Of a stretch of DNA of 64,000 bases, positions 1,949 through 28,060 are shown in pieces (within the stretch, counting starts at the first letter, position 1; the number at the start of each line of letters is the position of its first letter). The position numbers and the translations under genes were made by a program. Source of the stretch: Candidatus Iainarchaeum sp. (GTDB lineage Archaea; Iainarchaeota; Iainarchaeia; Iainarchaeales; 1-14-0-10-31-34); NCBI GenBank assembly GCA_040755695.1, contig JBFMAK010000001.1:128637-192636 (forward strand), written 5' to 3'. The notes below the pieces were generated by a model that was not told the origin of the DNA, ran no database searches, and was given only the letters and a program-made list of their open reading frames with translations.

Positions 1949-3601
1949 TTATAACTCCAGTTCCATTACTGTTGTATTGGCTTCCAAGCCGAAGTTGTTC
2001 AGGGTCTTCTGGTTTACTTCTCCAATGAGCCCCTTCATTTTTTTCTCTACAAGGATTTCTGCTACCCTGCCTTCAGTTAATGAAGGGTGAATTGCCTCCT
2101 TTAACTCGTAATTGAATGAAAGATTCTTTGCTATTGCTTCCAGCACAGACTTCATTTCATTGAAATTGGATTTGGAGTGAGAGAAAGCAAGGCACAATTT
2201 GAATGGCTCCTTTACCCGGGTCTCAGTCTTTTCATTCAATTCAACTGCCCTCCCCAATTCAAAGATTCTCTGCGGGAAAGGGCAGTGCTTGTTTCTGCCC
2301 AAAAAATTCAGTGCCTCAGGAATCAGGCTCAGCCTGAAGACGCTGAAAGAAGAGGATACAGGATTGCTTAATTCAATGAAATTCAATTCTTTCAAATTCA
2401 TTTTGTGTTCCTGTATATCCCTTGAAGTCAAATGGAATGAAAGAATCTCCTGCATTCCAAGCCCAACGCATAATTCCCTTAAAGCCTCGAACTTCCCGCT
2501 TTCTGAAAGCCCTGAGCCTCTTGTTGGAAGAAGAACTTTTTCTGGAATGAATTTATTGAAGTCAAATGCAATTGCAATGTCTTCAATTACATCAATTGAA
2601 TGCAGGATGTCAGCCCTGTAATCAGGGCAAAAAACTTTAATGCTCTTCCCCTTTATTTTTCCTTTCATTCTCTTTTTTTCAAGCAATGAAAGGATTTCTT
2701 TCTCCTTGAATTCCTGCCCTAAAATTTTTTCTATTTCACCTAGGGCAAAAGAAATCTTTTCTGCACCGAATTTTGGAGTGACAATCTTTTGTTTTTTTCC
2801 CTCATAAACAATTTTGATTGATTCAATTTTGCCCCCCCTGTCAGCCAAGGCCAAGCACATTATCTTCAATGCAATTTCCACCAGCTTTTGGTTAAAGCCT
2901 GTGACATCAACAAACAGATTCCTTGTTTCTTCTGTCACTTTTCCTGAGCCCTCAGAGTTAATTATAGGGGGCATTGAAAGAACTTCGTTCCCTGAATCCA
3001 CAAGCAAAGGGAATTTGGCGAAGTTCTCTATTAAGTGCCCAAACTCTTTTCCTTTCGGGTGCTTCAAGAGGATTTCCCTCAAGCTCATTCTTTCATTGGA
3101 GCCCAAAGGAATGAATTCAAGAGAAGGTTCAGCTGCAAAGTATTTCACGTTGCCTTTCACTTTATCCAAGTCAAATACTCCAATTGCAATCTCTTTCCTT
3201 TTCCTCCCGAAGCTCTCGCAGATTTTCTCCTGCAACTGAATCAATTGGGCCAGCATGAAATCATTCACCTTCACTCCCTTTACTATAGCATAAGCTGCTT
3301 TAGGCCTAATGCCTTCCAAAGCAGAATCAACAAAAGCCTTTCTCCCGGACGGCTTCACGTTATACGAAGGAAGGCCTTTCTCTATTCCATACTGTGCCTT
3401 GAGTTCCCTTGCAATCCCTTCTGTGCTCCATAAATCAGGCCTGTTGGTGTCCTTTAAATCTACTTTAATTTTGTCTTTGTCTTCGCTCACTGCATTAATT
3501 TCGCCTTTCACGTAAAGCAATGCTTCCCCCAACTCCTTCAAGCTGAAATTTTTCTTCATCACGGAATTGAAGTCTTTCAATGAAATTTCAATTGTAGGCA
3601 T
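1949..3601 (-). CDS. pheT: Phenylalanyl-tRNA synthetase beta subunit (archaeal type)
   Basis: 550 aa. N-terminal 'MPTIEISLKDF...' and a B3/B4-like region 'RPDLWSTEGIAREL' are typical of archaeal PheT. Lies immediately downstream of pheS on the same strand with a 2-nt gap. Confidence 0.85.
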   Translation of the reverse strand: MPTIEISLKDFNSVMKKNFSLKELGEALLYVKGEINAVSEDKDKIKVDLKDTNRPDLWSTEGIARELKAQYGIEKGLPSYNVKPSGRKAFVDSALEGIRPKAAYAIVKGVKVNDFMLAQLIQLQEKICESFGRKRKEIAIGVFDLDKVKGNVKYFAAEPSLEFIPLGSNERMSLREILLKHPKGKEFGHLIENFAKFPLLVDSGNEVLSMPPIINSEGSGKVTEETRNLFVDVTGFNQKLVEIALKIMCLALADRGGKIESIKIVYEGKKQKIVTPKFGAEKISFALGEIEKILGQEFKEKEILSLLEKKRMKGKIKGKSIKVFCPDYRADILHSIDVIEDIAIAFDFNKFIPEKVLLPTRGSGLSESGKFEALRELCVGLGMQEILSFHLTSRDIQEHKMNLKELNFIELSNPVSSSFSVFRLSLIPEALNFLGRNKHCPFPQRIFELGRAVELNEKTETRVKEPFKLCLAFSHSKSNFNEMKSVLEAIAKNLSFNYELKEAIHPSLTEGRVAEILVEKKMKGLIGEVNQKTLNNFGLEANTTVMELEL

Positions 3602-3603
3602 TT

Positions 3604-5115
3604 TTATTCCACCATCACCTTTTGCCTTTTCAGCCAGTCCAGGTTATAGGAGAAGAGGTCTCTTGCATCGTTTATTCCTAGCTTGAACATGGCGAGCCTG
3701 TCGGCCCCAATGCCCCATGCCAGCGCCCTTCCTTTAATTCCAAGGTTTTCTGTAATTTCCGGCCTGAAGATTCCTGCCCCGCCAAATTCAATCCAGCCCA
3801 TTTCAGGGTGAAGGGCATTCAACTGAACCGAGGGTTCTGTGAAAGGATAGTAATCAGGAATGAATTTTATTTTTTCTGCGCCTGCAATCTCTTCAGCGAA
3901 TTCTTTGAGCATTCCAAGCAGGTGCCTGAAGGTGACAGTAGAATCAACAATGAAGCCTTCCAGCTGGTTGAATTCAATTAAGTGCGTTGCATCAACCACG
4001 TCAGGCCTGAAACATCGCGCAATAGAAAAATATTTTCCTGGCAGTTCAACCCCCTTCACCAGCTGCCTTGCGCTGTGCGCTGTGCCGTGGGCGCAGGGCA
4101 TAAGCCTTGAAGCAATCCTCTCACTCCAATTGTATTGCCAGCCCCTACTCTTTGAAATGCCTCCATTCTCGTGGGCTGCCTTCATTTTTTCCACAATCTT
4201 TTTGTCCGGAAGCAATCCGAACTGGGGCCTTTTAAGCTGGTATGTCTGCGTCCAGTCCCTTGCAGGATGGTTTTGAGGCTGAAACAATACATCAAAGTTA
4301 TAGAATTCCTGCACAATCAAAGGCGAAGGCATTTCCTTGAAGCCTAATTCAATCAATTTTCTTTTCATTTCATCCAAAAACTTAAGGTAAGGCTGCTTTT
4401 TTCCCGGAAAGATCTCAGGCACAGGCTCCTGGATATTGTAATGTCTTTCTATTACTTTTACATCATCTTGTGCTTGAATTTTTAATCCTTTTTCTTGCAT
4501 TAAATTTATTCCTTTCATTCCTTGTTCTGTAATTGAAGCAGATCCGGTTTTTTTCTCTTTTATTCTGATAAAGTCTTTTCTCTGCTGGAACTCCTTCAGA
4601 ACATTTTTTTCTTCTGCATTAAATTGTTCCAAGGGTAATTCTTTGTTAGAAATTTTCTTGAGCAGTTTTTCTTCCGGGATTTCTTCTTTAAGCGCATTAA
4701 ATCCTTTCTGCGTCAATTTTAATTTTAATGTGCCTTCCTTTTTTACTTCGATCCATTGCTTTCTTTTTGCCTGTCCTAAAGAAATGTTTAATTCATCTTT
4801 TCCCAGGGATTTTATTTCTTCTATTGCCTTCCAGTCCCTTGCATTCAATTCCTTGGCCAGCTTTTTTTCCGGGAGGCCTTCCCTCAATGCCTTTAATCCT
4901 TCTTCGCCTAAAAGAATAAATTCCTTTTTTTCTGTTCTTGTTTCAGCCAGGTTCTTCTGCTTGAGCCACTGCATTGACCTTCTCGCGCTGTCAATATCCA
5001 TGCCTGCTCTTTTAGCCAGATCCTCTGCGTTCAATTCCTTTTTTGCCTCGCTCAATGCCTTTAATGCCTTTCTCTCGATTTCGCTTAATTCACTTAACAC
5101 CTTCTCCAAGGTCAT
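3604..5115 (-). CDS. pheS: Phenylalanyl-tRNA synthetase alpha subunit
   Basis: Class II aaRS core with motif 2/3-like 'FRPDVVDATHLIEFNQLEGFIVD' and 'GAGIFRPEI...GIGADRLAM'. Long N-terminal helical/winged-helix extension as in archaeal and eukaryotic PheS. Confidence 0.9.
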   Translation of the reverse strand: MTLEKVLSELSEIERKALKALSEAKKELNAEDLAKRAGMDIDSARRSMQWLKQKNLAETRTEKKEFILLGEEGLKALREGLPEKKLAKELNARDWKAIEEIKSLGKDELNISLGQAKRKQWIEVKKEGTLKLKLTQKGFNALKEEIPEEKLLKKISNKELPLEQFNAEEKNVLKEFQQRKDFIRIKEKKTGSASITEQGMKGINLMQEKGLKIQAQDDVKVIERHYNIQEPVPEIFPGKKQPYLKFLDEMKRKLIELGFKEMPSPLIVQEFYNFDVLFQPQNHPARDWTQTYQLKRPQFGLLPDKKIVEKMKAAHENGGISKSRGWQYNWSERIASRLMPCAHGTAHSARQLVKGVELPGKYFSIARCFRPDVVDATHLIEFNQLEGFIVDSTVTFRHLLGMLKEFAEEIAGAEKIKFIPDYYPFTEPSVQLNALHPEMGWIEFGGAGIFRPEITENLGIKGRALAWGIGADRLAMFKLGINDARDLFSYNLDWLKRQKVMVE

Positions 5116-20880: not shown

Positions 20881-21708
20881 TCATGCCCTGACCTTTCTCG
20901 GCAAAAATTTCTTTAAAAGAATTCTTATTTTTTTTTCTTTTTTTGGTATTTTTAAATCTCTGGGGATTTCTTCTATTTTCCATTCTTGCTTTTCTTTGTT
21001 CCACCGAAACGAGTGAATATGCTTTAATCCCTTTTCTGTAAATATCCATCTGAAACTTTTTTCATATAGTTTTAATACCCTTTTTCTAGTTTTTGGTTTT
21101 TGTATCATTTTTTTTATTCCTGCGTGGCCTGCGCCATATTGAATTAATATTACAGGTTTTCTTTTGAGTTTTTGTGCTAATTTTGGCGCAATAATTTCTT
21201 CAACTGCATCAGCAGCCAATGCATTTACAAGCGCAACAGAGGTTGTTGGTATTAAATTACTTAAAAAAGAAGTTATGTTCACTAAAGGTTTTCTTAGTTT
21301 TATCTTTCCTTTAATAGCCAAAGGAAATGATACAATTGGGGTAATGATATTCCCTAACCCAATCATTGCAAGGCTTGTTAGCCCGATCTTTTTATTTTCT
21401 ATGATATTATTAATTAGCTTAGAAGCTCCAAGAAAAGTTAAAGCATCCCCCGATAATAACTCTCCCCTAATTATCGTATGACCAGTGGGTATCTTAATAG
21501 GGTCTACTATAAAAAAATCAATATTTTTTTCAATTAATTTTTTTTCTTCACGCGCAAATCTTTCGTCTGCAAGAAATTCTAATGGTTCACTATGCCATTC
21601 TTTAATGTGTATGTCAAATTCATGAGGAACTTTTTCCCATCGCTTTGAATGCTTTTCTAACACTAAAATATACTTCGCATTCTCTGTTTCAAAAGGAATC
21701 CAGCCCAT
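20881..21708 (-). CDS. Hypothetical protein, translationally coupled to rnz (TAAATG junction)
   Basis: ORF of coding quality. Start codon immediately follows the rnz stop. AT-rich, K-rich ends. Confidence 0.3.
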   Translation of the reverse strand: MGWIPFETENAKYILVLEKHSKRWEKVPHEFDIHIKEWHSEPLEFLADERFAREEKKLIEKNIDFFIVDPIKIPTGHTIIRGELLSGDALTFLGASKLINNIIENKKIGLTSLAMIGLGNIITPIVSFPLAIKGKIKLRKPLVNITSFLSNLIPTTSVALVNALAADAVEEIIAPKLAQKLKRKPVILIQYGAGHAGIKKMIQKPKTRKRVLKLYEKSFRWIFTEKGLKHIHSFRWNKEKQEWKIEEIPRDLKIPKKEKKIRILLKKFLPRKVRA

Positions 21709-22638
21709 TTACAATTCAAACTCCATTAAGTCTTCTGATACAATGGAATTAGCGAAAACCTGCCTTGCCTCTGTCTCGAACTTCCTTGGGTCTTTATGCC
21801 TTGGAGAAAGATGGAATAAAACCAGCTTCTTCACTTTTGCTTTTTCTGCTATTCCTGCGGCCTGCATTGCAGTGCAATGGAAGGTATGCTTTGCCCTCTT
21901 CTTCATTTCCTCCAAAAAAGAGGATTCATGGAACAATAAATCGCTGTGCTCTATTGCTTTAACGTAATGGCTTGAAGGCAGGGTGTCGCAAATTACTGCA
22001 ATCTTTTTTCCTATCTTCTTATTTTTTGAGTCAAGCACTTGCTCTGGCTTAATTCTTCTTCCTTTAAATTCAATTGTTTTTCCTTTCTGGAGTTCCCCCC
22101 ATAAAGGGCCTTCAGGTATGCCTAAAGCCTGTGCCTTCTCCCTCAAGAATTTTCCCTGTGAATCCCTTTCCTTGAAGATGTAACCATAGCAGGGAATGTC
22201 ATGATTAAGCCTTACTGCAGAAACAATAAAGTTTTCTTCATTCAATAAAACGCCTTCCCTTACCTCGATTGCCTTGAGCTCGAAATTCACTTTAAGCAGG
22301 CTCAATTCAATTGCCTTCTTTACTTTCTCTTTCACTCCTTTCGGGCCGAAAATGAATAAAGGTGAATCCCTTTGATGCATTGACATTGTGGCAATCAATC
22401 CAGGTAACCCTAAAATGTGGTCTCCGTGAAAATGGCTTAAAAAGATTGCGTGAACCTTCATGTAAGACACTTTTGCTTTCATCATCTGCCTTTGAGTGCC
22501 TTCCGGACAATCAAACAAGTAATTCAATCCATTGAAATTAATGTTAATTGCACTCAAGTTCCTGTCCTTTGTTGGAGTGCTGCAGCTTGAACCCAATACT
22601 GTTGCCTTCAATTCCTTCGCCTTCCTAATAAAAACCAA
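21709..22638 (-). CDS. rnz: Ribonuclease Z (tRNA 3' endonuclease)
   Basis: 'FLSHFHGDHILGLPGL' (HxHxDH). Size and C-terminal His motifs match short-form RNase Z. Confidence 0.8.
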   Translation of the reverse strand: MVFIRKAKELKATVLGSSCSTPTKDRNLSAININFNGLNYLFDCPEGTQRQMMKAKVSYMKVHAIFLSHFHGDHILGLPGLIATMSMHQRDSPLFIFGPKGVKEKVKKAIELSLLKVNFELKAIEVREGVLLNEENFIVSAVRLNHDIPCYGYIFKERDSQGKFLREKAQALGIPEGPLWGELQKGKTIEFKGRRIKPEQVLDSKNKKIGKKIAVICDTLPSSHYVKAIEHSDLLFHESSFLEEMKKRAKHTFHCTAMQAAGIAEKAKVKKLVLFHLSPRHKDPRKFETEARQVFANSIVSEDLMEFEL

Positions 22639-22725: not shown

Positions 22726-25134
22726 ATGGCTGAAAGAAGAGATGATGCATTGAATTTCAATTCAACTGCAGAGCTTAAGGTGTCAGAAAAACTAGTAGAC
22801 CAAGTAATAGGACAGGACAATTCAGTTGAGATAGTGAAGAAGGCTGCAGCGCAGAAGAGAAACATGCTTTTAGTAGGCCTTCCAGGCACAGGGAAATGTT
22901 TGACTGCTGATACTGAATTGCTTCTCGGAGATGGTTTAATTATTTCCTGCGAAGAGTTATACCCCCAACTTTATGATGCATCAGAAGTAGAATCAAAAAA
23001 TGAAAAAATGGTTGTTTTGAAAGTATCAAATCTTTCACCTAATGTTTCTTCTTTGGTCAAAGGCGCGAAGGAAAAATTTTGGATTAGAGATTCAAGATTG
23101 TTAAGAATCAGCAAAGAAAAATTTTCCGGGGATATTCTTTTAATTAAAACAGCGTCAGGTAGAAAAATTAAGGTTACAGAAAATCACAAACTTCTATCAG
23201 TTGATGAAAATGGTTTTCTGTTAAAAAAAGCTAAAGAATTAAGCAGTAGGGATCATTTAGCTGTTCCAAGCAAATTGACTTTGTTGGATGAAAAGCCTAC
23301 TGAAACAAATGTTTTATTGCCTTTACCTCCAGAAGGAATTTTTAAAAAAATTAAGGTTCCAACTAAACTAACAATAGAAATGGCAGCATGGCTTGGGCAC
23401 TTGATTGCAGAAGGCAGTTTTTGCAGGAATCAGATAAGATTCACTTCCGCTGAACAACATAAAAGAGAGTTTTTTAAGGAATTAACAGAGCGGATTTTTG
23501 ATATTAAACCTTATATGAAAGGAAAAGATGTTTTCATTAATAGCGTTGAACTATTAACTTATTTGCGTGAGATTCTAAGAATAAAAACTACAAATGCAAG
23601 AAACAAAGAAATTCCAGTTATTATAATGCGAGCCCCTCTACGAATAATTAAGTCATTTTTAGCGAGATTATTTGCAGATGACGGTTCATTTTATAGAAAT
23701 TGTGTGGAGTTGGCTTGTAGCAATGAAAAAATGGCTTCTCAAATTCTTTATTTATTGCTTCATTTTGGCATTGTAGCAAGATTAAAAGAAAAAAAAGATT
23801 CTAAAACAAAGTGGACCTATTACAGAATTTTTATTCAAGGAGAATTTCTTGATGATTTCATGAAGAAAATTGGTTTTGTTAATAGAAAAAAATTTGGAAA
23901 ATTGCAGAAATATATCTCAGAAAAAAAGTTTAATACAAATGTTGATATAATCCCTTTTGTTGGAAAACTGATTAAGCGGGCACGGTTGGCGAGGTCTTTA
24001 ACAGTTGACAATTTCAGTCCCATTAATTCAAGCATGATTTGCAGGTATGAAAATGGAAAAAGAAATCCAAGCAAGAAAGCTCTCATAAAAATTGTAAATG
24101 TTTTAGATAAAAGATTGCCTTTGAAAGAAGATGACTGCTTACCCTTACTAAAAACTCTTGCTTTTTCAAATATATTTTGGGATAAAATTATTGAAGTAAA
24201 GGAAGTTAACTATGAGGGATATGTTTATGATATAGAAATTGAAGCTGATAGTCATGTCTTTGTTGCAGGTTTTGGTGGTTTGTTTTCACATAATTCAATG
24301 CTTGCGCAGGCAATGGCAGAAATTCTTCCTGTAAGCGAATTGCACGACATTCTAATTTACCCTAACAGGAGCGACCCAAACAATCCAAGGGTGAGAGAGG
24401 TAAAAGCAGGCGAAGGAAAAAAGATTGTGCAGAAAGCAAGAATGGAGTCAAGGGCAAAGGAAGACAACGCAAGATTCATGGGATTCATTCTGCCATTAGG
24501 ATTCTTTATTATAGCAGGCTTTATGTGGAGGCCTTTGAACTGGATTCCGGATGTAGTGTATGCTGCGACATTAATTTTAGGCGGCTTTCTAATGATTGGA
24601 TTTGCTTTAGGCAGCCAGATGAGAATGCGCTCTGGAACAGGAGGAGCACCAAAACTATTGGTTGACAATTCAGGGAAAAAGACTGCTCCATTCACTGAAG
24701 GCACTGGGGCACGAGCAGGAGCACTGCTTGGTGATGTGCGTCATGATCCACTTCAATCGTTTATTGACGAAAATAAATTAGTTGTTAAAAGTAATGGTTT
24801 TTCAGATGTTTTGAGCTTTGAATCACTGTGGAAAATGATGACTAAAAAATACCCTGAACTAATAGAAAAGCATGAAAATGGGTATGAAGCAATTGTTTTT
24901 CCTGAAAATGAAAAAGTATTCACTGTAGGCTTTAAAGACGGGAAAGTTGTTGAATCAAGGATTCTTTCCATAAATAGGAAACCCTATGATGGCGAGGTTA
25001 TAGAAATTTCAGCTGAAAACTCAAAACTTACAGTTACCCCTGAACATAAAATTTTTACTGGTTTTAAAAGCAAAGAAGCTGAAAAAATTTTAAAAAACGA
25101 CAATTTGATTAAATTGGTCAGTAAAAAAAGCTGA
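22726..25134 (+). CDS. lonB: LonB protease fragment 1: N-extein (Walker A, TM hairpin, up to 'LGDVRHDPLQ') containing intein 1, ending in the N-terminal half of intein 2
   Basis: 'LLVGLPGTGK|C...' resumes as '...SHN|SMLAQAMAEILPV' (archaeal LonB 'GxPGTGKSMLxQAMAELLP'). TM insert 'FMGFILPLGFFIIAGF...'. 'GARAGALLGDVRHDPLQ' followed by 'SFIDEN...TVTPEH...' and a stop. Confidence 0.8.
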   Translation: MAERRDDALNFNSTAELKVSEKLVDQVIGQDNSVEIVKKAAAQKRNMLLVGLPGTGKCLTADTELLLGDGLIISCEELYPQLYDASEVESKNEKMVVLKVSNLSPNVSSLVKGAKEKFWIRDSRLLRISKEKFSGDILLIKTASGRKIKVTENHKLLSVDENGFLLKKAKELSSRDHLAVPSKLTLLDEKPTETNVLLPLPPEGIFKKIKVPTKLTIEMAAWLGHLIAEGSFCRNQIRFTSAEQHKREFFKELTERIFDIKPYMKGKDVFINSVELLTYLREILRIKTTNARNKEIPVIIMRAPLRIIKSFLARLFADDGSFYRNCVELACSNEKMASQILYLLLHFGIVARLKEKKDSKTKWTYYRIFIQGEFLDDFMKKIGFVNRKKFGKLQKYISEKKFNTNVDIIPFVGKLIKRARLARSLTVDNFSPINSSMICRYENGKRNPSKKALIKIVNVLDKRLPLKEDDCLPLLKTLAFSNIFWDKIIEVKEVNYEGYVYDIEIEADSHVFVAGFGGLFSHNSMLAQAMAEILPVSELHDILIYPNRSDPNNPRVREVKAGEGKKIVQKARMESRAKEDNARFMGFILPLGFFIIAGFMWRPLNWIPDVVYAATLILGGFLMIGFALGSQMRMRSGTGGAPKLLVDNSGKKTAPFTEGTGARAGALLGDVRHDPLQSFIDENKLVVKSNGFSDVLSFESLWKMMTKKYPELIEKHENGYEAIVFPENEKVFTVGFKDGKVVESRILSINRKPYDGEVIEISAENSKLTVTPEHKIFTGFKSKEAEKILKNDNLIKLVSKKS
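22897..24294 (+). mobile_element. Intein 1 (466 aa, cis-splicing, contiguous) in the Lon Walker-A P-loop; contains a LAGLIDADG endonuclease plus an HTH
   Basis: Block A 'CLTADTELLLGDG'. Block B 'IKVTENHKLL'. 'LGHLIAEGSF' and 'LFADDGSF'. HTH '...ICRYENGKRNPSKKALIKI'. Blocks F/G 'GYVYDIEIEADSHVFVAGFGGLFSHN' then +1 Ser. Cys codon at 22897-22899; Asn codon ends at 24294. Confidence 0.85.
24757..25131 (+). mobile_element. Intein 2, N-terminal splicing half (IntN, 125 aa), terminated by a stop codon
   Basis: Inserted between Lon 'DPLQ' and 'SGGLG'. Block A-like 'SFIDENKLVV'. Block B 'KLTVTPEHKIF'. Stop at 25132-25134. Confidence 0.7.
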
Positions 25135-25186
25135 CTACTGCAAGTTTGTTTCAGAGCCTGTTTGTACCATAATCAATTTAAATAAT

Positions 25187-25888
25187 TTGAATGGCAGTTT
25201 ATGTATGAGTTTTCTGTTTACGCATGAATGGATTGCAAAGTTAGTCTTAGGGAAGCTTAAAAAGAAAGCATTAATTTCAAACTATAATAATATTGATGAC
25301 TATTTCTTTGGGGCTATTGCCCCTGACATAAGGTACATAAATAATTCATCCAGAACACTAACACACGAGATTGAAGGAAAGTATTCAATATTTGAAACTT
25401 CTAAAAAGAATAAATACTCAAAGGCGTTTCTTGCAGGATTTGAAACCCATTTGGTTGTTGATGACGCTTGGTCTAATAGGGAGAAATGGTTGGATGAAAG
25501 CATTTATGAATTTTACAGTGTTAATGCAAACAACCTTGCTCAAAAATTTGCTTTGTATTTTCTTGTCGATGATTATTTTCAGAGCGAGGCTTACTGGTTT
25601 TTTCCTTTTGAATGCGCTGGCAATATTTTCCGTGCTAACGATTTGCAGCTCTTAATTGATTTAGGCTTTAATCATAAAGATATTTTATTGTATAAATCTT
25701 TGGCGGCCGTTTATATGAGAGAGCCCGGCATAGACACAATGAATATTTTTAATTTTGTTCCGGGAAAATTAGATGAAATTTTGATTAGAACAATATTGGA
25801 ACAAAAATCTACGTTAACATCGTTCTTAAAAGAATTCAAAAAAATTTCAGTAGAAAAAAGTCTGACTTTTTTGGAGAGCCATTTATGA
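25187..25888 (+). CDS. Independent ORF inside the intein-2 gap; hypothetical, possibly a metal-dependent hydrolase or nuclease (phospholipase C/P1-nuclease-like motifs)
   Basis: Likely ATG start at 25205 ('MSFLFTHEWIAKL'). His/Asp-rich motifs 'THEW', 'AIAPDIRY', 'FETHLVVDDAWSN'. No LAGLIDADG motif. AT-rich. Different frame from both Lon fragments. Confidence 0.35.
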   Translation: MNGSLCMSFLFTHEWIAKLVLGKLKKKALISNYNNIDDYFFGAIAPDIRYINNSSRTLTHEIEGKYSIFETSKKNKYSKAFLAGFETHLVVDDAWSNREKWLDESIYEFYSVNANNLAQKFALYFLVDDYFQSEAYWFFPFECAGNIFRANDLQLLIDLGFNHKDILLYKSLAAVYMREPGIDTMNIFNFVPGKLDEILIRTILEQKSTLTSFLKEFKKISVEKSLTFLESHL

Positions 25889-26000
25889 GCCCTAAAATGA
25901 AAATAATTCTTGCAATAGCTTTGGTTAGTGCTACAATATATATCTACCTATTTATCAGCCTTATGATTTTTTCATTCAATTTGGTTTTAGCTGAATAAAA

Positions 26001-27941
26001 TTGCATGTTAACACTAACTATTTTAACCTTTTTCAATTAATATTTTTTCATGATGCTATGAAAGAAAAAAATTTAAAGAGGGTTTTTCCCAAAATTTCAC
26101 GAAGAAAATTTCAAGGCCACGTATACAATGTTACAACCGAAACAGGAAACTTGTTTGTAGAAAATGTACTTGTTCACAATTCAGGCGGCCTTGGAACGCC
26201 CCCTCATCTTAGAGTAGAGCCAGGGCTAATTCACAAGGTTTCAGGGGGCGTCTTGTTCTTAGATGAAATTGCAACCCTCTCACCAAAAGCACAGCAGGAG
26301 CTCCTTACAGCAATGCAGGAGAAAAAATATTCTATTACAGGCCAAAGCGAATTAAGTTCTGGTGCGATGACTAAAACGGATCCTGTGCCCTGCTTTCCGG
26401 CAGAAACCTGTTTGCTGACTGCCAAAGGAAATGTAAGCATGGGGGCATTTATTGATTCAATTTTATCTAAAAATTATGATAGAGTTGCTGTAGAGAATGG
26501 AGTGGAGGTTTTTGATTTGGATGAAAAAGAGACTATTATTACTTATTCAAATAGTAAAATTATTCCTTCAAATGCAGAAAGAGTTTATAGACGTAAATAT
26601 TCTGGAAAGGTTCTAAAAATTAAATTTGATGATGGAACTGAATTAATTGCTACCCCTGATCATCCAATAAAAACAGTTAATGGTTTTGTAAAAGCAAAAG
26701 ATTTGAAGGTTAATGATGTTATTGAAGCAACGGGGGATCTCGTAATAATTGATGAAAAAGCAATTGTCAACACCTATTGTAAGGATAACCAGAGAATTGC
26801 TAACACATTTAATAAGTGGATAGCTTCAGGCAAAAAACTTTCAGCTAAAGAGTTAGGTGTTGATTATAAAACAATTTTTTCATGGAAAAAAGGTTCCATA
26901 CCGCGTGCACTTAAAAGTGTCAATCAACTCAACAGAAAAAAACTTTTACCGTTAAACCTTAATGATGAGAGAGTGCCTAAGATAGCCAGGGTTGTTGGAG
27001 CCCTGTTTGGCGACGGCGGAATAGATGGCAGAAGACTTTCAAGAGTATATTTCTCTACAGATTCAAACAGTATGGATGATTTAAATGAATTTAAGAATGA
27101 TATTCTATCAATATTTGGAGAGGAAATTAATTCAGCAATAACCATTAAAAAAATTACTTCTAAGGGAGGGAGTGGCTTGGATTTATCTATTAATAATTCG
27201 TCCGTTGCCCGTTTTTTCTATGCTCTGGGTGTTCCAAAAGGAGATAAAGTTTCGCAGTCCTTTACAGTACCTTTCTGGGTTAAATTATCAGACAAACTAA
27301 AGAAAGAATTCTTTTCAGCTTTGCTTTGTTGTGAATTATATGGAAATATTAGAAGCAGTCAAGATACTATTTCCTTTGTTATGGCTAAATTAAAGAAATT
27401 TGAGAAAGAACACATTGAGTTCTTGAATGAAATTAGAAATTTTTTATTAAAAAACAGAGTTGAAGTGAAAGAAGTAGAACAGGACAAAGAATATTTTAAA
27501 GCTAAAGGATTACCTAACCCCGAGACTGCTGGGGCTTACTTGTTTAAACTAAATTCAGGTTATAAAAATATAATTCAATTAGCTGACATTATTAACTTTT
27601 ACTATGCAAAAAACAAAAAATCAGCTATACCCAACGTAGTGAAGAATGGTAAAATATTTATAGAGTCTCAGAAACACCTAGATAGTTTAAAGGAAGAAGC
27701 ATTGATGTTGAGAAATGCTGGAAAGACCATTCGTATAATAGCAAAAGAAACGGGATTGTGTAAAAATACTGTCTGGAAAATAGTTGGAAAGACATACAAC
27801 AAATATTCCAAATTAGACAGAAAAAGAGTTTTTGGTTTATTGGGTAAAGGTATAATACCAAAAATTGTTGCCAAAAAACTTGAAATTCCTTATACTACTG
27901 TTCTTTATTGGAAGAATAATTATTTTAGTGAGGAGTCATGA
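26001..27941 (+). CDS. lonB: LonB fragment 2: intein 2 C-terminal half, a 70-aa Lon extein (Walker B/sensor), then the intein 3 N-terminal part with endonuclease
   Basis: The likely true start is ATG 26058 ('MKEKNL...'). '...[22 protein letters not shown]|[33 protein letters not shown]...TDPVP|[13 protein letters not shown]...'. Confidence 0.75.
26058..26180 (+). mobile_element. Intein 2, C-terminal splicing half (IntC, ~41 aa)
   Basis: Blocks F/G '[20 protein letters not shown]' followed by +1 Ser of 'SGGLGTP'. Confidence 0.75.
26391..27938 (+). mobile_element. Intein 3, N-terminal part (516 aa): splicing blocks A/B, a LAGLIDADG endonuclease and an HTH; ends at a stop overlapping the next start
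   Basis: Block A '[13 protein letters not shown]'. Block B '[12 protein letters not shown]'. LAGLIDADG '[13 protein letters not shown]'. HTH '[24 protein letters not shown]'. TGA at 27939-27941. Confidence 0.75.
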
Positions 27942-28060
27942 TGTTTTCCAAGATTACTAAAAAGATTACAGGTATTGAAGAAAGAGATTTCAATGGTTAT
28001 GTGTACAATATAAAAACAGAAACAGGAACTTATATTGCCAATTCAATTGTCGTTCATAAT
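27938..28060 (+). mobile_element. Intein 3, C-terminal splicing half (IntC, 41 aa)
   Basis: Blocks F/G ending 'VVHN' with +1 Cys of '[10 protein letters not shown]' (LonB 'PVPCDF..VAAGN'). Confidence 0.75.

Follow-up and report, generated by a model that had tools for sequence, protein, structure and literature searches.

A conserved stop/start junction in an archaeal LonB protease gene points to a naturally split intein that keeps its endonuclease module on the N-terminal fragment

We analyzed a 64-kb stretch of DNA (64,000 nucleotides, hereafter the window) from a 581-kb contig that derives from a metagenome-assembled genome (MAG) and is labelled 'Candidatus Diapherotrites archaeon' (DPANN). 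Open reading frame (ORF) listing together with Pfam and NCBIfam scans located an archaeal LonB protease gene at positions 22726-29155 of the plus strand, on which all LonB features given below lie, and found it broken into three ORFs (ORF-A, ORF-B and ORF-C) that carry three inteins. Intein 3 straddles ORF-B and ORF-C and spans 26391-28060, the same coordinates that a first-pass annotation of this DNA had given. We consider it probable (roughly 0.8), from sequence analysis, that intein 3 is a naturally split intein with its break at the 3′ edge of a nested endonuclease module, the two fragments being made by coupled synthesis and acting by trans-splicing. The same break recurs in 12 divergent loci, which places the arrangement far beyond chance, and as judged by these comparisons the split is evolved and is conserved across a DPANN lineage.

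ORF-B (26058-27941, 627 aa from the ATG at 26058) and ORF-C (27938-29155) meet in an ATGA stop/start overlap (27938-27941), in which the ORF-B stop codon TGA occupies 27939-27941. The sequence at 27938-27943 reads ATGATG, and ORF-C can begin at ATG 27938 or at ATG 27941. Upstream lies a Shine-Dalgarno (SD)-like GAGGAG (27930-27935) that is encoded by the last codons of ORF-B. Its AGGAG is 2 nt from ATG 27938 and 5 nt from ATG 27941, which makes the latter (TGATG, a 1-nt overlap) the better-spaced start. The first-pass annotation had described this element as a strong ribosome binding site; an SD-like motif is indeed present and the label is fair, yet the motif is not exceptional. Both candidate starts that it had named, and its claim that ORF-C opens with blocks F and G of a C-terminal intein half (IntC), are confirmed in the sequence. 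This intein 3 C-fragment (27938-28060) comprises 41 residues (MMFSKITKK...SIVVHN), matches TIGR01443 (intein_Cterm) and is followed directly by the +1 Cys codon of the C-extein at 28061-28063 (HN/C, boundary 28060/28061, with the slash marking a splice boundary here and below). The ORF-C frame is closed by TAG TGA (27926-27931) two codons 5′ of its ATG, so that any indel or ribosomal slip fusing the two frames is confined to the seven bases GGAGTCA. These contain no slippery site and, as had been noted earlier for the junction, no homopolymer.

A protein search with ORF-B returned, in addition to an identical database record (P0001, 100% identical, 627 aa), 21 homologues with 37–71% identity to ORF-B over the full length. 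When aligned, all 21 end no more than ∼10 residues after an invariant ...P..T...W motif, and they are ∼620–640 aa long or exceed this length only at the N-terminus. No contiguous form of the site-3 intein was found in an HMMER scan of 1.84 billion representative proteins, and the four end-to-end matches to the N-fragment in that scan all stop at the same point. For the junction itself we compared 12 distinct and independently assembled loci (the window plus 11 fetched from NCBI, ENA, JGI and Logan assemblies), among which the intein is 33–69% identical. In every one of the 12 the stop codon of the ORF-B homologue overlaps the ATG of the downstream LonB ORF by 1–23 nt (1, 1, 14, 4, 8, 8, 11, 23, 8, 8 and 14 nt in the 11 further loci), and four loci have the downstream ORF in the +2 frame, the other eight in the +1 frame. 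An SD-like match, defined as at least 4 nt matching AGGAGGTGATCC no more than 18 nt upstream of the restart ATG, was scored against 312 other ATGs within the same genes as controls. Such a match precedes 10 of the 12 restart ATGs compared with 28.5% of the controls (p = 1.3e-4), and matches of at least 5 nt precede 5 of the 12 compared with 2.9% (p = 1.3e-5). The Gly/Glu/Asp-rich tails of the ORF-B homologues are variable, which fits selection acting on the nucleotides rather than on the peptide.

The C-fragment is 34–41 aa long across these loci, starts ∼17–20 residues before block F and is invariant in all 12 at G, VYN, T, T..AN and HN/CDF. The break falls at one protein position, just after the endonuclease and helix-turn-helix (HTH) module of contiguous relatives, i.e. 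at the endonuclease-insertion loop. Collectively, the same break in 21 homologues, the overlapping ATG in 12 junctions, the SD enrichment and the invariant catalytic residues described below uphold the earlier proposal that this is an evolved stop/start junction and not a random frameshift.

The intein 3 N-fragment (26391-27938, 516 aa) starts with a HINT N-lobe, followed by a helical linker, the core of a LAGLIDADG endonuclease and two HTH motifs at the C-terminus. There is no stop codon within 26391-27938, and the endonuclease is in frame with the N-fragment. The N-extein ends in ...TDPVP and is followed by the Cys1 codon TGC (26391-26393), which opens block A (CFPAET); block B (TPDH) lies at 26652-26663, and TIGR01445 (intein_Nterm) matches intein 3 with an E value of 2.5e-12. 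Two LAGLIDADG helices, GALFGDGG and LLCCELYG, each end in an acidic residue at the catalytic position. The first (26991-27029) carries Asp208, with G203, L205, G207, D208 and G209 invariant, and the second (27306-27344), which the first-pass annotation did not list, carries Glu315, with E306, F307, S309, L311 and E315 invariant. The two HTH motifs occupy 27696-27920 at the end of the fragment, with a Pfam HTH_23 match at 27696-27785 (E 4e-7) and a second HTH-like stretch at ∼27846-27920 that ends in an invariant motif (P630, T633 and W637). Contiguous relatives at a second LonB insertion site (site 2, discussed below) have one HTH-like motif at this position versus two in intein 3, and more distant inteins match the N-fragment only to residue ∼413–460. 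Over 21 N-fragment sequences C1, T88, H91, G207-D208-G209 and E315 are invariant. Blocks A and B, a LAGLIDADG motif, an HTH and the TGA at 27939-27941 had all been read earlier into the N-terminal half, and each was located at its proposed place.

An AlphaFold2 model of the N-fragment has a pLDDT (predicted local distance difference test) of 86.7. Its best Foldseek matches in the PDB are endonuclease-bearing inteins, namely TliVMA (7qss, E 5e-12), PI-TkoII (2cw7), PhoVMA and PI-SceI. The next matches are I-DmoI-type LAGLIDADG enzymes, with an E value of about 1e-5 and a target-normalized template modeling score of 0.6–0.69 for I-DmoI. The endonuclease assignment draws on the motifs, on the fold match and on homology with other inteins, and not on Pfam.

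We scanned a genome collection with extein-derived patterns, which recovered three members of the intein 3 family and, for the most part, LonB loci with an empty site 3. In these 77 other loci (one per GTDB species), which served as controls, the flanking extein codons abut with a gap of 0. Intein 3 is therefore an insertion at a conserved site. When all three inteins were removed in silico, the resulting 645-aa protein scored 854.5 bits against the LonB equivalog TIGR00764 (cut-off 516.6) in a single stretch covering profile positions 2-607 of 608. Tblastn matches to intein residues in loci with an empty site 3 were assigned to inteins at site 2 and discarded as site-3 candidates. Comparison of 11 occupied loci showed that, for 10 of them, the sampled LonB with the most similar C-extein has no insertion at site 3; the extein of L087, for example, is 88% identical to that of empty L010 and 67% identical to that of the most similar occupied locus. 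Overall, intein identity correlates with extein identity (Spearman 0.74), and the nearest neighbors of the two sometimes disagree, as in the window, where the extein is nearest to L089 and the intein is nearest to L001. The empty close relatives and these mismatches, together with the invariant nuclease residues, would fit a split element that continues to home.

The next-best relatives of the N-fragment are LonB inteins at site 2 (HDPxQ/SGGLGTP), which are 29–34% identical to it. We surveyed this site in 92 LonB loci from DPANN and other archaeal genomes (L001-L091 plus the window). It is occupied in about half of them, with ∼8 contiguous and 44 empty, and split mini-inteins are found in 36–39 of the 92, the window included, with an IntC ORF start of ∼40 aa. 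Contiguous site-2 inteins are represented by P0127, P0137 and eight loci, while P0125, P0128 and P0130 are split and carry a LAGLIDADG endonuclease on the N-half, accompanied by one HTH in P0128 (L092, 4001-7484) and P0125 (L093, 4001-7437). The site-2 C-half ORF starts 10 nt downstream in L092 and with a 4-nt overlap in L093. The architecture of intein 3 recurs here at a second LonB site, which, like the conservation of its family across a lineage, the first-pass annotation had missed. In a neighbor-joining tree the site-3 family forms a clade with 99% support among site-2 inteins with contiguous basal members, and the site-2 forms that are split with an endonuclease form a separate 96% clade. 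This suggests that contiguous ancestors gave rise to the break on at least two occasions, with the direction of evolution being only suggestive because the tree is rough and its deep nodes are weak (36–56%).

A later state may be represented by L094 (1971-4483). Relative to L085 it has undergone a deletion of ∼1.1 kb, 14 nt at the joint being shared sequence, that took out the endonuclease together with the HTH motifs. What stays is an N-fragment of ∼141 aa with an out-of-frame tail, followed by an intact SD, ATG and C-fragment ORF (13-nt overlap). By this comparison L094 is a site-3 mini split intein derived from an endonuclease-bearing form, and its retention of the SD and ATG after the deletion argues that the downstream start works alone.

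Could the endonuclease and HTH module have been domesticated, so that it binds DNA as a regulator or serves as a scaffold for capturing the C-fragment, is no longer a homing nuclease, and leaves the split fixed and vertically inherited? The two terminal HTH motifs are strongly conserved and peculiar to the site-3 family, the LAGLIDADG-plus-HTH regulator WhiA is among the fold matches (8dy9_I), and the correlation of intein and extein identities is in line with vertical descent. WhiA-type domesticated proteins have lost the LAGLIDADG acidic residues, whereas both of these residues are invariant here. Moreover, most occupied loci have a closer LonB relative with an empty site 3, intein and extein neighbors disagree in places, and L094 has lost the module entirely. 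We therefore regard domestication as unlikely, though it is the alternative that best withstands the evidence.

A second alternative is that the halves are made separately and do not splice, in which case the intein halves would hold a working LonB together non-covalently or the locus would be in decay. Archaeal split genes with unligated products are known (cited in PMC2677866), and splicing of intein 3 is something that we infer. This alternative would leave it unexplained why Cys1, T..H, HN and Cys+1 are invariant among inteins that have diverged to 33–69% identity while neighboring positions vary, and why a 516-codon ORF is intact in 12 lineages despite an AT-rich genome (38.5% GC). The exteins are also well conserved (54–79%), and the host protein has its Walker B motif and GDSAS protease Ser motif intact. 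A non-splicing locus thus appears improbable.

The overlapping ORFs in adjacent frames could in principle also be fused by programmed ribosomal frameshifting into one cis-splicing precursor. Four loci would then need a shift of −1 and the other eight a shift of +1, the overlap varies between 1 and 23 nt, and there is no conserved slippery heptamer. An ATG, on the other hand, is always present, with an SD-like motif in 10 of 12 loci, and in L094 the deletion altered the upstream frame while the SD and ATG were kept. The existence of two different frame relations excludes one conserved programmed frameshift as well as one recurring sequencing error, and we give frameshifting very little credence. 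Finally, a sequencing or assembly indel in an otherwise contiguous intein, conceivable for a contig derived from a MAG, can be dismissed for practical purposes, as it would have to sit in the homopolymer-free GGAGTCA, have recurred at one protein position in 12 independently assembled loci with differing junctions and two frame relations, and have left no contiguous homologue among the 1.84 billion representatives.

Several observations weigh against our interpretation of intein 3 as a trans-splicing, endonuclease-bearing split intein. An SD-like match is absent in 2 of the 12 loci, and because the window has no rRNA gene the SD test assumed the canonical 16S rRNA 3′ end in place of the host's own anti-SD. 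Block F has an Asn where many class-1 inteins have an Asp, though the contiguous relatives also have Asn. No Pfam LAGLIDADG profile (PF14528, which does match intein 1, or any other) matched ORF-B at E ≤ 0.01. The patchy distribution at site 3 could reflect loss instead of homing. Lastly, what the sequence establishes directly is the layout in two ORFs, the conservation of this layout, the integrity of the catalytic residues and the in silico restoration of LonB, while coupling, fragment association, splicing and endonuclease activity are what we infer from it.

The mechanism that we propose for intein 3 is as follows. ORF-B and ORF-C would be co-transcribed, with termination of ORF-B coupled to initiation of ORF-C through the overlap and the SD motif. 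This coupling would deliver the two fragments in equal amounts and close together. The 41-aa C-fragment would then dock on the HINT N-lobe of the 516-aa N-fragment, and standard class-1 chemistry would join ...TDPVP to CDF.... Acting along with split intein 2 and the cis-splicing intein 1, intein 3 would in this manner yield the 645-aa LonB from three polypeptides. The released N-fragment probably stays a site-specific endonuclease, and the whole split element, junction included, may home into empty LonB alleles.

A fuller account goes beyond this mechanism, and we offer it tentatively, at less than even confidence. Intein 3 would be a homing-competent split intein with an active endonuclease and an internal stop/SD/start cassette, whose invasion breaks LonB into two coupled ORFs that are rejoined by trans-splicing. 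It would form with intein 2 an orthogonal three-piece tandem system, and the series from contiguous, to split with endonuclease, to split without endonuclease (as in L094 and in intein 2 of the window) would record the origin of canonical split inteins.

Natural split inteins have been described as mini-inteins that lack an endonuclease (PMC12707363, PMC4760082, PMC6801210), with N-fragments of ∼100–120 aa or, in atypical cases, of 15–25 aa (PMC12707363). Like intein 3, the canonical examples (cyanobacterial DnaE and Nanoarchaeum equitans PolB) have their halves on separate ORFs, each fused to an extein, a break at the endonuclease-insertion loop, a short C-fragment of ∼35–41 aa, and Cys1 with a terminal Asn and +1 Cys. 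Unlike these, intein 3 has a 516-aa N-fragment with a LAGLIDADG endonuclease and HTH and is not a mini-intein, with only its derivative in L094 being so. Its halves are also adjacent and overlapping, whereas the DnaE halves reside at distant loci.

The arrangement also bears comparison with the 'fractured genes' of Dassa et al. (2009), in which a free-standing GIY-YIG or Vsr endonuclease gene lies between the split halves of phage-like genes (PMC2677866). There the endonuclease follows the stop codon after a 27–51-nt spacer, and its 3′ end overlaps the C-fragment ORF by 6–69 bp (PMC2677866). The authors proposed that the fractured arrangement stands midway between contiguous and split inteins, and predicted that LAGLIDADG or HNH enzymes might do the same (PMC2677866). 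Intein 3 shares with it the single locus and strand, an endonuclease between the splicing halves and a 3′ overlap (1–23 nt, compared with 6–69 bp). It differs in that its endonuclease is of the LAGLIDADG type and continues the N-fragment in frame, with no separate endonuclease ORF, and in that the host is a cellular archaeal protease gene. In the window it is intein 2, and not intein 3, that resembles the fractured arrangement.

Contiguous endonuclease-bearing inteins (TliVMA, PI-TkoII, PI-SceI, and P0127 and P0137 at site 2) have the same order of HINT-N, LAGLIDADG and HINT-C. These are single cis-splicing polypeptides, whereas blocks F and G of intein 3 are set apart by the stop/start junction. 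Artificially split forms of the endonuclease-containing inteins Psp Pol-1 and PI-PfuI trans-splice after fragment reassembly; these are laboratory constructs and often need refolding. Our literature search returned no account of split inteins in LonB, nor of any naturally split intein that still carries an endonuclease, with coverage that was incomplete, so that this absence is not proof.

The intein 3 family thus falls outside the described split-intein classes. The sole illustration to date of how an endonuclease-bearing contiguous intein splits without killing its host gene comes from phage-like fractured genes, whose nucleases are free-standing. Intein 3 would supply a missing state, in which the endonuclease is still on the N-fragment and a compact coupled restart serves the C-fragment. 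With relatives in the preceding (contiguous) and following (endonuclease deleted) states, this pathway can be tested with real sequences. A split element whose endonuclease is still active could also remain mobile. The locus is a candidate tool as well, since it offers two related natural split inteins placed in tandem on one protein, a combination sought for three-segment ligation (PMC12707363).

Intein 2 (24757-26180, at HDPLQ/SGGLGTP), which went unnoticed in the first-pass annotation, is split as well, and LonB is consequently encoded in three pieces. The intein 2 N-half (24757-25131, 125 aa, without an endonuclease) follows ...HDPLQ and then meets a stop codon, and the C-half (26058-26180, 41 aa) ends in ...VLVHN/SGGLGTP. 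ORF-B therefore runs from the intein 2 C-half through a 70-aa middle LonB extein (26181-26390) to the intein 3 N-fragment, so that only 70 of its 627 residues reach mature LonB. This order of IntC, extein and N-terminal intein half is the topology used by engineers to cyclize peptides. Inteins 2 and 3 are paralogous (31% identity over the N-lobes and 47% over the C-fragments) and must be orthogonal in practice, since cross-reaction would cyclize the 70-aa extein. The gap of ∼0.9 kb between ORF-A and ORF-B contains two ORFs unrelated to the intein, one of 233 aa and one hydrophobic ORF of 37 codons. In L087 the intein 2 gap (3227-3649) holds a 140-aa ORF of the nuclease-fold family PDDEXK_5 whose ends overlap the stop codon before it and the IntC start after it, the classic fractured-gene layout. 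We also note that many LonB proteins of ∼475 aa in databases are C-halves that start with a site-2 IntC.

The remainder of the gene is laid out as follows. ORF-A (22726-25134, 802 aa) encodes, in order, the N-extein, the contiguous intein 1, a transmembrane region and the N-half of split intein 2, and has Pfam Intein_splicing and LAGLIDADG_3 matches along with partial matches to TIGR00764. Intein 1 is a contiguous LAGLIDADG intein (22897-24294) inserted inside the Walker A motif (GTGK/C...HN/S). ORF-C continues past its intein 3 C-fragment into the rest of LonB, this C-extein (28061-29155, 364 aa plus the stop codon) comprising the remainder of the AAA+ module, the LID domain and the Lon_C protease domain with GDSAS. 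Altogether, only 35% of the residues that are translated are retained in LonB. An exact-sequence look-up of ORF-C (405 aa) found no record, the annotated start probably being different.

The public name of ORF-B is 'sigma 54-interacting transcriptional regulator', a name likewise borne by homologous middle LonB pieces in DPANN genomes. It stems from the match of the 70-aa AAA+ fragment to PF00158, and looks like a systematic misannotation of LonB pieces. An Rfam scan of the 64-kb window brought no family, tRNA and rRNA included, to its gathering score. Gene order around LonB is conserved in L081, L083, L085, L089 and L090, with a divergent gene of the metallo-beta-lactamase fold (Lactamase_B families) upstream and DUF373, Band_7 and SpoIIM genes downstream, and the occupied loci are therefore orthologous. 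The corresponding flanks of the window (20881-22638 and 29165-34233) were matched to these neighboring genes by position and length only.

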